Shown: in pieces, positions 6,106 to 25,805 of the stretch
How positions within the stretch are numbered: the stretch's first letter is position 1
Layout of the letters: the number at the start of each line of letters is the position of its first letter
Origin: a bacterium
GTDB taxonomy: Bacteria; UBA9089; CG2-30-40-21; SBAY01
Assembly: GCA_040754115.1 (NCBI GenBank)
Contig: JBFMDD010000018.1
Location: 1-45,484, forward strand
Direction of reading: 5' to 3'
Length of the DNA stretch: 45,484 bases
Program-made: the position numbers and the translations under genes
Notes under the pieces: generated by a model
The model's input: the letters and a program-made list of their open reading frames with translations, nothing else
Told to the model about the DNA's origin: nothing
The model's database searches: none

Positions 6106-7647
6106 GTGAAATACCACCAAATAGAACCTGATATTAGTGATGAAGAATTCTTATTATTCCAAAACTTTATATTACAAAATAGTGGTATATTTATAGATGA
6201 GGCTAAACGAGACCAATTAAGAAGAGCCCTGTTATCTCGAACTACATTTATGAATCTCACTGGATATGCTGATTACTATAAATTTTTGAAATATAACCCA
6301 AGAGGAGAAGAGGAATTTAAAGAATTACTTAACTTAATTACCATAGGTGAAACATACTTTTTCCGTGATGCAAAACATTTTAACACACTGCGTAAGCATG
6401 TATTGTTAGAAATTATCAAAAGAAAACAGTCTGCGGGTAATAGGGGTATTAAAATCTGGTCTGCAGGCTGTTCTACTGGTGAAGAGCCTTATTCGATTGC
6501 TATTACTTTGTTAGAAAGCCTACAACCTATACAGATGTGGGATGTGGAAATATTAGCTTCAGATGTTAGTACCAGGGCATTAAAGACAGCTCAGGAAGCG
6601 GAATATTCCAAATGGTCTCTCAGGTCTACTAATAGAAGTTACATTGAGAAATACTTTATTCAGGAAGGTAAAAAATTTACTCTAAAAGATGAAATCAAAA
6701 AGATGGTAAATTTTGAGTTTTTTAATCTTATCAAAGAACCATTTCCTCTGTCTAAAATGGGTGATTATTGGGACATCATCTTTTGCAAAAATGTAACTAT
6801 CTACTTTAAACCTGAATCTACAAAACGGGTAATAAGTAATTTTTATAACAGTCTACAAAAAGAAGGTTACCTATTTATTGGTGCTTCAGAATCTCTATAT
6901 CATATATCAAGTGAATTCAAATTATTAGAAATAGAGGGGAACTTTATATATCAAAAACCAGTTGAGGAAATCGTTAAAAAACCAGTTGAAGACCAAAAAG
7001 TAGTTATAGAAAAGATTACTCCGCCAACAAAATTACCCAAAAAACCTAAAAAGGTTGATGAGTTAAAAAAAGAAGTAGAAGAAATTAAACAAAAAGCAAA
7101 AGTTCCATCTGATGATAAAAAAATAGATGAATTATATAAAACTGCTCAATATTATTTTGAGGAAGATATGTTTGAAAAGGCATTATTTGAATTGATGAAG
7201 ATAATTGAGCTCACGGATGAACATTCTGAAGCCTTTCTTATGTTAGCAGATATTTATGCCAATAAAGAGCAATTTGATGATGCAGAAAGGGAATGTCGTA
7301 AGGCATTGCAACTTAATTCATTACTCTCGCCTGCTCATTTCCTTTTAGGTATCATCCTTAACAAGAAGGGGAAAATAGAAGAAGCCATTAATGAATTTAA
7401 GAAAACTATCTATTTAGACCCTAATTTCCCTTTAGCCCACTTTAACCTCGCCAATATCTACTATGAAAACAGAGACTATCAAAAAGCTACAACACAATAT
7501 AAGGCGACGATAGATATATTGAATAAAAATACAGATATCCCTGCTAAAATTAGTGGTGGGTTCTCAAAAAATATCCTAATCCAAACATGCCAGCGAAAGA
7601 TAGAAAAGATAGAAGAGGAAACTTCAAAACGGTTCACTTTAATGTGA
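6106..7647 (+). CDS. cheR: Chemotaxis protein methyltransferase CheR with a C-terminal TPR domain
   Basis: ETYFFRD and IWSAGCSTGEEPYS SAM-MTase motifs, a Lys/Glu-rich linker, and TPR-like repeats (ADIYANKEQFDDAERECRKALQLN..., ANIYYENRDYQKA). GTG start with an AAGGAGG RBS. The last 6 codons and the TGA fall inside MITE-B-derived sequence. Confidence 0.88.
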   Translation: MKYHQIEPDISDEEFLLFQNFILQNSGIFIDEAKRDQLRRALLSRTTFMNLTGYADYYKFLKYNPRGEEEFKELLNLITIGETYFFRDAKHFNTLRKHVLLEIIKRKQSAGNRGIKIWSAGCSTGEEPYSIAITLLESLQPIQMWDVEILASDVSTRALKTAQEAEYSKWSLRSTNRSYIEKYFIQEGKKFTLKDEIKKMVNFEFFNLIKEPFPLSKMGDYWDIIFCKNVTIYFKPESTKRVISNFYNSLQKEGYLFIGASESLYHISSEFKLLEIEGNFIYQKPVEEIVKKPVEDQKVVIEKITPPTKLPKKPKKVDELKKEVEEIKQKAKVPSDDKKIDELYKTAQYYFEEDMFEKALFELMKIIELTDEHSEAFLMLADIYANKEQFDDAERECRKALQLNSLLSPAHFLLGIILNKKGKIEEAINEFKKTIYLDPNFPLAHFNLANIYYENRDYQKATTQYKATIDILNKNTDIPAKISGGFSKNILIQTCQRKIEKIEEETSKRFTLM

Positions 7648-7789: not shown

Positions 7790-10074
7790 TCGAAAATGTA
7801 TTAGCAATTTTTATATTACTTTTACTCTTATCTATCTTCTTTTGGAAGGCTATTACTCTACAAGGGCTGTGGGTAACTGGTGAGTTTAGCCTGTCGGATA
7901 TTACAGAGCTTAATTTCCCACTTAAATATTTACTTTATGACTCATTACAAAAATTTTCACTTCCGTTATGGACTAAAGACCTGCTATGTGGCTATCCTGC
8001 ATTTGCAGAAGGAGAAGGTGGACATTTATATCCGTTGAATCTACTTCTTTTTTCTTTCCTGCCTCCATTAGCAGCATTTAATTACAGCCTTATTATCTCT
8101 TATTTATTAGCTGGATTTTTTACATATCTATTTGCCCGCAAGATTAAATTAAGTTGGTATTCCTCACTAATTAGTGGAATTATCTTTATGTTTTCTGGCT
8201 TTTTAGTTACTCATCTTAAACATCCATCTATGATTTCAGCCTGCTCTTTAATGCCTCTTTTGTTTTATCTTGTAGAGTGCTATTGGGGTCAGATTGGTTT
8301 GACCCCTTTAATTCTGGCTGGTGTTATCTTTGGCTTACAAATATTAGCAGGACATCAACAAATAACGGTTTATTCCATGGTTGGGGTAAGTTTATACTTT
8401 TTATTCAGATTTTTAATAACATTATTTATTGAAAATTATTCTCAGCCTAAAAAAAGGAGAAAAACAAAAAAACTCAATAAATTGAGGAAGCCATTTAAAG
8501 ATACAAGTCTAAAACTTGCATTCTTTACCTTAATAATCATTATTGGGCTTGGTATAGGAGCAGTCCAAATTCTACCTACCTACGAGCTTTCAAATCATTC
8601 CTATCGGTCAGCGGAAATAGGATTTGAAAATATTGTAAGATTCCCTTATCCTCCAAAACATCTAATCACATTTATCAAACCATATTTTTATGGTGATCCA
8701 GGTGAAGGAACATATTCTATACCAGGTGAAGAATGGGGTTTTTTCTGGGAAAATACAGGTTATGTAGGAATATTACCGTTAATTCTCTCACTAATTGGGA
8801 TAACCTTTATTTTTCTTAGAAATAAAAAGGCATCATTTTCTCCTGCAAATATCTTATCCAGTAACCAACACATTATCTTCTTTTCTTTTTTATTGATTTT
8901 TTCAATCCTGCTGGTATTAGGCAAATATGGTCCACTATTTCCTTTACTTAAGTTACCTGTTTTATCTACATTTAGATTTCCTGCACGATTTTTGATGTTA
9001 GTAGATTTCTCATTGGCTATCTTGACTGCATTTGGAATAGAGGTTTTATTGAATAAGGTTAAATTCAAGAAGATAATCAAATGTTGTATTCTGCCTATTA
9101 TTGTAATTGATTTATTTATCTTTGGGCTGAAATTTAATCCTACTATTTCACCTAAACTATGGTTTGAAAAACCTGAATCTGTAAAGTTTTTAGAAAAAGA
9201 TAAAAGCATATATAGAATTTATAGTCTTGGGGCAGAAGCGACCTGGAGTCATGTATATTTCAGTATAAGTCATGGCTGGCGAAAGAACCTGTTACCTTAT
9301 CTAAAACATCGAGAGATATTGGCAGTTAATTCCAATCTACTTCATGGAGTCTCAAATGCAGATGCCTATTTCCCACTTCTGCCTTTAAGACCATGGATGT
9401 TTAAAAAATTTATAGAACAAAATATTAATTTTGATAATCGTCGAGGAATAGCCATTATTCCACCACATCTAATGAAGATAATGAGTATGTTAAATATAAA
9501 CTACATCCTTTCATTTTATCAAGTTGAAAATGAGAAATTAGATTTAGTTAAAACAATTGATGTAGGAGAAGGATTGCCACCATTAAAGATTTATAAAAAC
9601 CATAGTTGTCTTCCAAGGGCATTTTTAGTACCAACTACAAGAGTAGTTTCTGATGCGAATAAGATTATCCAGGAGCTAACAAAAGAGGATTTTGAGCCTA
9701 AAAAGGAAGTAATTGTAGAAAAAGAAATTCCTCATCCCTCATCCCTCATCCCTCATCCCTCGTCCCTTGTTGAGATTGTAACTTACCAATCTAACAAAGC
9801 CATACTTAATGTTTCTTCCCCTACTGATTGTATTCTATTTATGAGCGATACTTATTATTCTAGCTGGAGAGTATTTATAGATGGAGTTGAAGGAGAGATA
9901 TTTCCTGCTAATTTAGGATTTAGAGGAGTTGCTTTAAGTAAAGGAGAGCATGAAGTAAAATTTGTTTACAAACCAAAGGCATTTAAAATAGGCTTAATTA
10001 TCACTTTGATAACCATCTTATTGCTCATTAGTTACTCTGGCGGCGTTATACTAAAACTGAAGGATAAATTTTAA
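7780..10074 (+). CDS. YfhO-family polytopic membrane protein (putative glycosyl-transfer / glycopolymer-modifying protein)
   Basis: Many TM segments. The C-terminal block FIDGVEGEIFPANLGFRGVALSKGEHEVKFVYKPKAFKIGLIITLITILLL resembles YfhO C-termini. I prefer ATG 7780 (MNRLENVLAIF...) over GTG 7741 because 7741-7779 is MITE sequence. Confidence 0.75.
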   Translation: MNRLENVLAIFILLLLLSIFFWKAITLQGLWVTGEFSLSDITELNFPLKYLLYDSLQKFSLPLWTKDLLCGYPAFAEGEGGHLYPLNLLLFSFLPPLAAFNYSLIISYLLAGFFTYLFARKIKLSWYSSLISGIIFMFSGFLVTHLKHPSMISACSLMPLLFYLVECYWGQIGLTPLILAGVIFGLQILAGHQQITVYSMVGVSLYFLFRFLITLFIENYSQPKKRRKTKKLNKLRKPFKDTSLKLAFFTLIIIIGLGIGAVQILPTYELSNHSYRSAEIGFENIVRFPYPPKHLITFIKPYFYGDPGEGTYSIPGEEWGFFWENTGYVGILPLILSLIGITFIFLRNKKASFSPANILSSNQHIIFFSFLLIFSILLVLGKYGPLFPLLKLPVLSTFRFPARFLMLVDFSLAILTAFGIEVLLNKVKFKKIIKCCILPIIVIDLFIFGLKFNPTISPKLWFEKPESVKFLEKDKSIYRIYSLGAEATWSHVYFSISHGWRKNLLPYLKHREILAVNSNLLHGVSNADAYFPLLPLRPWMFKKFIEQNINFDNRRGIAIIPPHLMKIMSMLNINYILSFYQVENEKLDLVKTIDVGEGLPPLKIYKNHSCLPRAFLVPTTRVVSDANKIIQELTKEDFEPKKEVIVEKEIPHPSSLIPHPSSLVEIVTYQSNKAILNVSSPTDCILFMSDTYYSSWRVFIDGVEGEIFPANLGFRGVALSKGEHEVKFVYKPKAFKIGLIITLITILLLISYSGGVILKLKDKF
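9730..9764 (+). repeat. Heptanucleotide array (CCTCATC x4 + CCTCGTC) inside the yfhO-like CDS
   Basis: Read directly. It is translated as IPHPSSLIPHPSSL. Confidence 0.9.
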
Positions 10075-23971: not shown

Positions 23972-24267
23972 TATACTGGACACTGTCATTAACTGAGCTA
24001 TTTAGGGACAGTTTATTTTCATTTTCATCGTTTTTCACGGTGATTTCTTTTGGAAATTGGAAATTAGAAATTGGGGGACGGTTCATTTTCATCGTTTTTC
24101 CTGTGATTTCTTTTGGATTTTAGGAATTGTTCATGGAACGCTGAAATTGGAAATTAAACTTTCACTGCTCTCCCCAATTTCTAATTTCATATCCATTTTT
24201 TAACCGCAAGCTTTCACGCTAAAGTGAACCGTTTCTAAAATCGCAATTTGTAACGGTGTTGAGTATA
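23972..24267 (+). mobile_element. MITE family B copy with an internal partial duplication (296 bp)
   Basis: The termini TATACTGGACACTGTC ... GGTGTTGAGTATA are as in the other copies. The segment GGGACGGTT.ATTTTCATCGTTTTTC..GTGATTTCTTTTGGA occurs twice. Confidence 0.75.
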
Positions 24268-24323: not shown

Positions 24324-25805
24324 ATGTATTATCCAACTAAAGAAGAATTCAAGCAAAAGGCAAAGCAGGGTAATTTGATACCTGTTTATAAAGAGATTTT
24401 AGGTGATTTAGAGACACCTGTTTCTGCATTTTATAAGATTAGTCAAGGTGGAAAATATGGCTATCTTTTAGAGAGTGTAGAAAAGGGAGAAAAATTAGGC
24501 AGATACTCGTTTTTAGGCGCTTCTCCTTCCATAATATTCAAATCCAAAGGTAGCCAGGGAGTGATTATCAAAGATGGGAAAGAAGAAATCTTCAATGTGG
24601 CTAATGACCCATTAATTCAACTTAAAAAATTAATGAGTCAATTTAAACCCGTTAAGGTAGATGGCTTACCAAGATTTTATGGAGGAGCAGTAGGCTACCT
24701 GAGTTATGATTATGTCAGGTTTATAGAAGAGTTGCCTGATAAAAATCCAGATAACCTTAATTTACCAGATACATTCTTTGTTATTACTGACACAATTCTT
24801 ATCTTTGACCATCTACTTCAAACCATAAAAGTAGTTTCAAATGCTTATGTAGATAAAGACCCAGATTTAGCTTATGAAAAAGCAATAGAACAAATTGAAG
24901 GGATAATCACTAAATTACGGCAATCGATACCAGTTCGAAATTCGAAATTCGAAATTCGAAATTCGAAATTCCCATTCCAATCTAACTTTACCAAAAATGG
25001 ATTTGAGAAAATAGTAAAAGGTGCAAAGGAATATATCAAAGCGGGAGATATAATTCAGGTTGTTCTTTCGCAAAGACTTACTGGAAAGATTCATTCAGAG
25101 CCGTTGACTGTATATCGGGCGTTAAGAAGAATAAATCCTTCGCCGTATATGTTTTATCTAAAATATGATGAGGTAAATATTGTCGGTTCTTCTCCAGAAC
25201 TTTTAGTAAGATTAGAAGAAGGAGAGGTAGAAACCCGGCCTATTGCAGGGACAAAGCCTCGTGGCATCAATGAAAAAGCAGATGATAAGTACGCTAAAGA
25301 GTTGTTAGCAGACCCAAAGGAAAATGCAGAACATATCATGTTAGTTGACCTGGGTCGCAATGATATTGGGAGGGTGTGTGAGTATAAATCAATTCATCTG
25401 CCTGAATTTATGGTTATAGAGAAATACTCACATGTAATGCACATTGTTACCTCAGTAAAAGGGAAACTCCTACCTCAATATGATGCCTTTAGTTTAATAA
25501 GAGCTTGTTTCCCCGCAGGAACAGTTACGGGTGCTCCTAAAGTGAGGGCTATGGAGATAATCAATGAATTTGAACCTGAACGAAGAGGCCCTTATGCTGG
25601 ATGTGTGGGCTATTTTAGCTTCTCAGGTAATTTAGATACCTGTATTACTATTAGAACTATTGTTATTAAAGATGGTAAAGCCTACCTGCAAGCTGGAGCA
25701 GGAATTGTGGCAGATTCTAACCCAGAAACTGAATATTATGAGACGATGAATAAACTTAAATGCTTAATTGATGCTGTTGAATTAGCAGAGAAAGGACTAC
25801 AATAG
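24324..25805 (+). CDS. trpE: Anthranilate synthase component I TrpE
   Basis: LLESVEKGEKLGRYSF, AGDIIQVVLSQR, INPSPYMFYL, RPIAGT, GTVTGAPKVRAMEII and AGAGIVADS motifs. AGGAGA RBS. No trpG or trpD follows. Confidence 0.93.
   Translation: MYYPTKEEFKQKAKQGNLIPVYKEILGDLETPVSAFYKISQGGKYGYLLESVEKGEKLGRYSFLGASPSIIFKSKGSQGVIIKDGKEEIFNVANDPLIQLKKLMSQFKPVKVDGLPRFYGGAVGYLSYDYVRFIEELPDKNPDNLNLPDTFFVITDTILIFDHLLQTIKVVSNAYVDKDPDLAYEKAIEQIEGIITKLRQSIPVRNSKFEIRNSKFPFQSNFTKNGFEKIVKGAKEYIKAGDIIQVVLSQRLTGKIHSEPLTVYRALRRINPSPYMFYLKYDEVNIVGSSPELLVRLEEGEVETRPIAGTKPRGINEKADDKYAKELLADPKENAEHIMLVDLGRNDIGRVCEYKSIHLPEFMVIEKYSHVMHIVTSVKGKLLPQYDAFSLIRACFPAGTVTGAPKVRAMEIINEFEPERRGPYAGCVGYFSFSGNLDTCITIRTIVIKDGKAYLQAGAGIVADSNPETEYYETMNKLKCLIDAVELAEKGLQ
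24934..24968 (+). repeat. Heptanucleotide array (TTCGAAA x5) in frame inside trpE
   Basis: Counted directly. It is translated as VRNSKFEIRNSKF, in the linker preceding the conserved ...KEYIKAGDIIQVVLSQR block. Confidence 0.92.

Follow-up and report, generated by a model that had tools for sequence, protein, structure and literature searches.

A perfect heptanucleotide array read in frame in the inter-domain linker of trpE and its counterparts in a family of uncultured bacteria

Results

The trpE gene and its heptanucleotide array

The DNA stretch analyzed in this study (hereafter the window) comprises positions 1 to 45,484 of contig JBFMDD010000018.1 from the metagenome-assembled genome (MAG) GCA_040754115.1, designated G000 (2.86 Mb, 365 contigs, 34.7% G+C), and the subject of the analysis is a perfect heptanucleotide array that is read in frame within the trpE gene of this genome. 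The gene, the region encoding the linker of its product, and the array are located in the window as follows.

24324..25805, + strand: trpE, anthranilate synthase component I; an intact open reading frame (ORF) of 493 aa with Pfam and PDB matches
24921..24977, + strand: inter-domain linker coding region, residues 200-218; coil in the AlphaFold2 model, outside both Pfam domains
24934..24971, + strand: perfect, slippage-prone heptanucleotide array (TTCGAAA)5.4, encoding VRNSKFEIRNSKF; identified by Tandem Repeats Finder

Two Pfam domains score above their curated cut-offs in the product, Anth_synt_I_N (PF04715; residues 28-167, 124.5 bits) and Chorismate_bind (PF00425; residues 224-477, 312.3 bits). 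Solved TrpE structures in the PDB align to the protein over residues 5-490 with an E value of ~1e-110, and every invariant column of the TrpE homologue alignment is retained. TrpA, TrpC, TrpG, and TrpD, the four further pathway proteins searched for, are detected above cut-offs on other contigs of G000; the window gene looks to be the anthranilate synthase of a seemingly complete tryptophan pathway.

The array falls in the linker between the two Pfam domains. Five full TTCGAAA units, arranged head to tail, occupy positions 24934-24968, and the tract called by Tandem Repeats Finder extends to 24971 with a score of 76 and 100% matches. Residues 204-216 of TrpE, VRNSKFEIRNSKF, are the translation of the array in frame, in agreement with the units and the peptide noted from the sequence alone (hereafter the sequence-only reading). 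The chance expectation of such a tract in 2.86 Mb is ~1e-11 (own arithmetic, from a lag-7 match probability of ~0.27 per base over 31 consecutive matches), and a chance origin is therefore excluded.

The 7-nt unit is not divisible by three, and the sequence-only reading had predicted the effect of unit changes on the frame, which simulated changes confirm. The gain or loss of one or two units yields products of 215-234 aa in which the Chorismate_bind domain is lost, whereas the gain or loss of three units keeps the frame. Additionally, an array of (TTGGAAA)3.6, whose unit is one base off the coding unit, lies in the trpE leader at 24050-24074.

Arrays at the linker site in related trpE genes

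At the same linker site, each of the 13 TrpE genes sampled from the family clade (83-88% identity; G000, G001, G003, G004, and G005, together with eight metagenomic relatives) has a heptamer array or a degenerate remnant of one. Peptides with a 7-aa period were recognized there by protein alignment, and the DNA confirmed the arrays. The consensus sequences of the 13 genes are all in frame, as are two array-bearing genes of a sister clade that were read as DNA. The arrays of the 13 genes are as follows.

G000: (TTCGAAA)5.4
G003: (TCCGAAA)6.1
G005: (TCCGAAA)5.9
G004: (TCCGAAA)2.9 + (TTCAAAA)3.0
G001: (TCCAAAA)2, a 22-nt GC-rich palindromic insert, (TCCAAAA)2.3
P0002: TCCGAAA + (TCCAAAA)4.6
P0003: mixed units
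P0008: (AACGAAC)3.9
P0004: AACGAAT/AACGAAC units
P0009: (TTCGGAT)5.3
P0010: (TTCAAAA)3.9
P0005 and P0011: degenerate remnants

A TrpE tree calculated without the linker recovers the 13-member clade with support of 100/99, and the unit type follows the sub-clades. Arrays are likewise present here in a second clade (63-67% identity), namely (TCCAAAG)3.7 in P0014 and (CACCGAT)4.0 in P0019. Of the 120 top homologues, 21 from two clades have peptides with a lag-7 periodicity at residues ~200-216. On the alignment and the tree, the trpE array is ancestral to the whole family clade and not a recent insertion.

The variation of the units bears on the proposal that the tract is a sequence-specific functional element, bound or folded as DNA, RNA, or peptide, that regulates trpE or TrpE. 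This proposal is very improbable. The TTCGAA palindrome allows the G000 tract to fold back on itself, with a minimum free energy of -12.3 kcal/mol for a 65-nt segment, the leader of trpE carries the related array described above, and regulatory roles have been proposed for heptamer repeats, including speculation on intergenic ones of cyanobacteria and Beggiatoaceae (10.1101/2022.06.06.494920; PMC4679880). However, the unit, the peptide, and even the strand sense vary among orthologues (NSKFEIR, NPKSEIR, NEQRTT, RISDFGF), with P0009 carrying the G003 unit as its exact reverse complement, and the period and the position are the only conserved features. The TTCGAA palindrome is missing from most variants, and a function of the RNA self-hairpin of the G000 tract was rejected because the palindrome is not conserved among the orthologous units. 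The same variation shows that relatives do not carry one identical, fixed peptide, the outcome that the sequence-only reading had named as contradicting it.

Several individual arrays have additional features. The insert in G001 (L082) is CGACCCGCAAGCGGGTGCCCCG, with the palindrome ACCCGC-AA-GCGGGT; it resembles small nested elements reported within heptamer arrays elsewhere, and the gene remains in frame with a linker of 24 aa. The (TTCGGAT)5.3 array of P0009 (L198) is the reverse complement of the (TCCGAAA) arrays of both G003 and G005 at the same site, which could reflect inversion in situ or convergence by two substitutions per unit.

The trpE gene lies outside any trp operon in the family, with trpG, trpD, trpC, and trpA on other contigs, and hisI (PRA-CH) is located upstream of trpE in the four contigs of relatives that extend that far (L191, L192, L200, and L203). 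In more distant relatives, trpG lies directly 3' of trpE. The database labels attached to TrpE relatives are "bacterium", "Nitrospira sp." for a MAG that is a genome of the same family, and Candidatus Omnitrophica.

Sequence and length of the TrpE linker

The AlphaFold2 model of the window TrpE has a mean predicted local distance difference test (pLDDT) score of 84.5, and residues 200-218 adopt a coil conformation, with 10-residue block means of 53 (residues 201-210) and 64 (residues 211-220). The permissive, variable linker anticipated by the sequence-only reading is thus recovered in the model. The linker is 17-21 aa long in relatives, repeat-bearing and repeat-free alike (24 aa in G001 with its extra insert), and the alignment with PDB homologues runs through it with no more than a 2-3-residue gap. 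The interval between the conserved flanking anchors was measured in eight genes; six lineages have exactly 75 nt and two have 69 nt, even though the array of G000 is displaced by 1 nt relative to the anchors when compared with those of G003 and G005. In TrpE of the sister family f2 (62% identity), the linker is non-repetitive. Because the linker is disordered in the model and yet its length and the anchor interval are conserved across lineages, its sequence is free and its length is constrained.

These results also bear on the invasion or insertion of a heptamer that the sequence-only reading had entertained. The recent insertion of a genome-wide heptamer into trpE of G000 is hardly credible: TTCGAAA (equivalent to GAAATTC) does occur at 10 other loci of this genome, but all members of the family clade have orthologous arrays whose units follow the tree, and neither repeat-free relatives nor, apart from the short gap mentioned above, PDB homologues have a shorter linker.

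Turnover of the array and an out-of-frame allele

At four-fold degenerate sites, trpE of G000 differs from the other clade members at a fraction of 0.40-0.53, which corresponds to ~0.7 substitutions per site pairwise after Jukes-Cantor correction and predicts roughly at least 11 substitutions per 38 neutral bases per lineage. Nevertheless, the tracts of G000, G003, G005, and P0009 are perfect over 37-43 nt. Passive retention of the tracts is therefore excluded, and the combination argues for repeated and ongoing re-homogenization.

Three trpE alleles were found within one species-level cluster that represents a sister lineage. In P0002, the units are arranged G-A-A-A-A (G, TCCGAAA; A, TCCAAAA), and in P0122 they are arranged A-A-A-G-A; both alleles are in frame (ON), and they differ by three residues, two of which are within the array, and are 99% identical otherwise. 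The third allele, P0121, encodes a product of 224 aa and is present on two contigs, the longest of 7165 nt. A P0002 coding sequence (CDS) from which a single TCCAAAA unit is deleted reproduces exactly both the length of P0121 and its out-of-frame tail, …KIQNSRYNLILPRMDLRR. P0121 also differs from P0002 at K177R and is thus a separate haplotype. P0121 is a natural one-unit slippage allele that takes trpE out of frame (OFF), and in this sister lineage it occurs beside the ON alleles P0002 and P0122.

Assembly collapse was rejected as the source of P0121. The Logan assemblies are, as we understand them, built from 31-mers; the 25-nt tract is shorter than a 31-mer and by this reasoning was spelled by real reads, and the K177R difference also speaks against collapse. 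A search with the 224-aa OFF product revealed no further truncated alleles in the family, with the limit that clusters at 90% merge fragments into full-length proteins, and a second cluster listing contained unit substitutions and no other frameshift.

The OFF allele is a point in favor of a selected contingency locus, in which the array would be kept since reversible slippage switches tryptophan prototrophy ON and OFF, so that part of the population saves the cost of the pathway while neighbors supply tryptophan and reverts otherwise. This explanation agrees with the presence in an ORF of a unit not divisible by three, whose one- or two-unit change truncates the product, with the occurrence of a minus-one-unit OFF allele on two contigs beside ON alleles, and with the maintenance of perfect arrays at the site family-wide despite saturating synonymous divergence. 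Experimental populations of Pseudomonas also provide a case in which a heptanucleotide tract evolved into such a locus (bioRxiv 10.1101/2024.05.01.592015). Additionally, neither a TrpE orthologue nor TrpD was found in the G002 assembly of the same family (93% complete), which may indicate that auxotrophy is viable in the niche. On the other side, the frame is intact in the consensus of each of the 13 family-clade genes and in the two array-bearing sister-clade genes whose DNA was read. With 5.4 units, the tract is also short compared with the 8-38 units of the heptanucleotide tracts proposed to be phase-variable in Haemophilus (PMC2651432), and it lies mid-gene and not near the 5' end (cf. PMC3315296). 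The shortness of the tract and the in-frame consensus of the 13 family-clade genes would argue for a low switching rate, and a selected contingency locus is considered unlikely.

In G002, TrpA is present and the only TrpE-like protein is a paralogue with 42% identity. The lack of TrpE and TrpD in this genome is due to a gap in the assembly or to partial loss of the pathway.

The genome-wide heptamer population

Heptanucleotide repeats are abundant in G000, where period 7 accounts for 1307 of the 4168 Tandem Repeats Finder rows. Perfect tracts of at least three copies number 158 at period 7 compared with 19 at period 6 and 23 at period 8, and 68 canonical heptamer units are represented. The perfect period-7 tracts are mainly non-coding (143/158): 15 of the 158 lie in coding-like ORFs, which cover 81% of the genome, so that the tract density is ~40-fold lower inside CDSs than outside, both figures being based on our own, approximate ORF calling. 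The longest perfect tract is 39 nt in a CDS and 86 nt elsewhere.

The trpE unit belongs to this population, as had been supposed from the sequence alone. When rotated, it reads GAAATTC and falls within GAAATTN, the commonest unit family of G000, whose variants are stop-free in all phases only when N is C or G. GAAATNN arrays are present at many loci in all five other genomes of the family, and none was found in 77 kb sampled from f2. The 10 further loci of TTCGAAA in G000 are mostly copies of one dispersed hairpin element, and the trpE unit is thus a variant used in the commonest family of G000 that resembles miniature inverted-repeat transposable elements. Copies of the element lie on contigs C28, C38, C53, C69, C95, C213, C225, and C322; its arm GAAATTG GAAATTC GAAATTC GAAAATGG pairs with CCAATTTTCTAATTTC(C/T)AATTTC.

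In-frame arrays in other genes

The trpE gene is one of several housekeeping and membrane genes of G000 with in-frame heptamer tracts. The others are as follows; persistence at the orthologous site was examined for trpE, queA, and pyrC.

G000 contig C206:11790-11828: QueA, (AAATCCA)5.6, in frame
G000 contig C257:331-367: dihydroorotase-like amidohydrolase (PyrC), (AAATATC)5.3, in frame near the N-terminus
Window 9730-9761, G000 contigs C154:3648-3673 and C213:2981-3007: three YfhO-like paralogues with heptamer tracts
G000 contig C50:4657-4685 and 6609-6642: PdxA and KsgA/RsmA heptamer tracts

In queA, arrays or remnants are found at the same site in the orthologues of all five other family genomes (L205-L209), with differing units. 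Compared with G000 and G004, the tract in G003 and G005 lacks exactly 21 nt (7 aa), and three-unit, frame-preserving steps thus do occur; together with P0121 and P0002, these genes show whole-unit copy changes between relatives. At the pyrC site (L210-L211), G002 carries (TTCGAAA)4.7, which is the window trpE unit and encodes RNSKFEIRN, and G004 carries (AAATCCA)4.9; the homologue in G005 (48% identical) has a non-repetitive segment of the same length. An apparent "1 TGA" in pyrC of G002 was rejected as a frameshift, as it is the natural stop codon.

The tracts of the YfhO-like paralogues (units CCTCATC, AAATCTC, and GACAGAG) occupy a homologous C-terminal position, right after a KEVI(L/V)EE motif. 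The inserts of PdxA and KsgA/RsmA are long composites of several heptamer tracts, such as ...SKVRSQKSEVRGQK... and ...PPEPRAPSPEPRVPSPESR....

A bias of in-CDS arrays toward frame-preserving lengths had been suggested as a check in the sequence-only reading. The lengths of the 15 in-CDS tracts fall 5/2/8 by remainder modulo 3, a distribution that is uninformative because tract length includes pre-existing sequence.

The equivalent arrays in queA, pyrC, pdxA, ksgA, and the yfhO-like genes weigh further against a contingency locus in trpE, since they make the arrays generic to permissive loops. The switch suggested by the sequence-only reading gains a natural minus-one-unit allele in a sister lineage and is weakened by the in-frame consensus, by the short mid-gene tract, and by arrays in at least five other genes. 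That a reversible tryptophan-prototrophy switch has been selected and kept family-wide, and more broadly that the coding heptamers of housekeeping genes form a set of such switches, is rather doubtful.

Discussion

The observations established for the trpE array are its anatomy and orthology, the turnover of its units, its reading in frame, and, in a sister lineage, one natural OFF allele. The tract is probably a long-lived, self-renewing coding microsatellite in a permissive surface linker of TrpE, in which selection holds the frame and a linker of ~19 aa and which occasionally gives rise to reversible frameshift alleles. It is one of ~15 in-frame members of the genome-wide heptanucleotide population of this lineage. 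As three units equal 21 nt, or seven codons, the tract is read in all three phases and gives one cyclic heptapeptide throughout, and only the phase in which it is exited matters. Replication slippage or unequal exchange would re-homogenize the tract again and again, which would explain why the units are alike within a genome and unlike between genomes.

Slippage would thus act as the homogenizer and purifying selection on TrpE as the frame keeper, with the majority allele kept in the reading frame and the linker held at close to 19 aa. One- or two-unit changes would be an incidental by-product, in which the enzyme is truncated ahead of its catalytic domain, and would usually be purged. OFF alleles may occasionally reach high frequency, and reversion would occur by another slip.

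Several points weigh against a self-renewing microsatellite. No TrpE lineage carries the +/-7-aa length variant that would be expected from three-unit slips alone, a difficulty for the renewal of perfect arrays at constant length. Conceivable routes to such renewal are repeated loss and regain of three units, pairs of one-unit slips, and length-neutral templated conversion; such pairs of slips would pass through transient OFF states, the viability of which is indicated by P0121. Additionally, the OFF allele is present on 2 of the ~5 contigs of its lineage, a larger share than expected of a rare deleterious mutant, and a biosynthetic gene that has long kept a frameshift-prone tract bears a mutational load, which a purely neutral model must absorb.

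Genome-wide heptanucleotide tandem repeats were reportedly described in cyanobacteria by Mazel and colleagues in 1990 as short tandemly repeated repetitive (STRR) sequences. Related cases are the GGGAATC repeats of Xanthomonas and Nostoc (PMC4692102), the TAACTGA repeats of Beggiatoaceae (PMC4679880), and the four-heptanucleotide elements of Geobacter metallireducens, which occur within and between genes (PMC2700814). The repeats of G000 share with genome-wide heptamer repeats the perfect head-to-tail units, the period-7 excess, the many units, the mostly intergenic location with under-representation in CDSs, and the variable copy number, and they share with those of Geobacter the occasional intragenic copies. 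Unlike the repeats described in these papers, the trpE tract is read in frame within the gene of a core biosynthetic enzyme, has orthologues throughout the family, with arrays at this site in a related clade too, and has a unit that is replaced by lineage at constant linker length and a documented natural frameshifted allele.

A comparison with contingency loci based on simple sequence repeats (SSRs) reveals both likeness and difference. In Haemophilus influenzae, (AATTTTG)14 is located inside hmw1A and (AACAACC)8-13 inside a TonB-dependent receptor gene, and the proposed phase-variable heptanucleotide SSRs of 8-38 units lie upstream of or inside surface-protein genes (PMC2651432). The experimentally evolved tract of Pseudomonas fluorescens consists of GGTGCCC units in pflu0185 (10.1101/2024.05.01.592015). 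The trpE tract resembles such loci in its 7-nt unit inside an ORF, in the truncation caused by unit changes, and, in a sister lineage, in the occurrence of ON and OFF alleles among close relatives. It differs in its 5.4 units and mid-gene position, in that the gene serves central metabolism and not surface or regulatory functions, and in its occurrence in an environmental, uncultured organism, where the majority allele is ON in every lineage and the adaptive value is putative.

Coding SSRs of prokaryotes are generally suppressed in the middle of proteins (Lin and Kussell 2012, PMC3315296). The heptamers of G000 conform to this pattern in that frameshift-prone repeats are avoided in CDSs and tolerated where structure permits, and depart from it in that long-lived, perfect heptamers are tolerated mid-enzyme in essential genes of this lineage. 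The literature search found no published heptamer tract that is orthologous, unit-replacing, and in frame in a biosynthetic gene and that has a natural frameshift allele; the trpE orthology series and the natural OFF allele are contributed by the present analysis.

Frameshift-prone repeats are normally purged from the mid-region of essential genes, and SSR switches have, to our knowledge, been found almost exclusively in the surface and restriction genes of pathogens adapted to a host. In the family described here, a perfect 7-nt tract persists family-wide at one site of a core biosynthetic gene, with its unit continually rewritten and the length of the linker held. The site may therefore serve as a tractable natural system for the renewal of coding microsatellites under frame constraint, for the question of why period 7 is favored in these genomes, and for the question of whether slippage gives reversible auxotrophy in environmental communities that share metabolites. 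If the switch were real, cells of this family would alternate between making tryptophan and relying on their neighbors.

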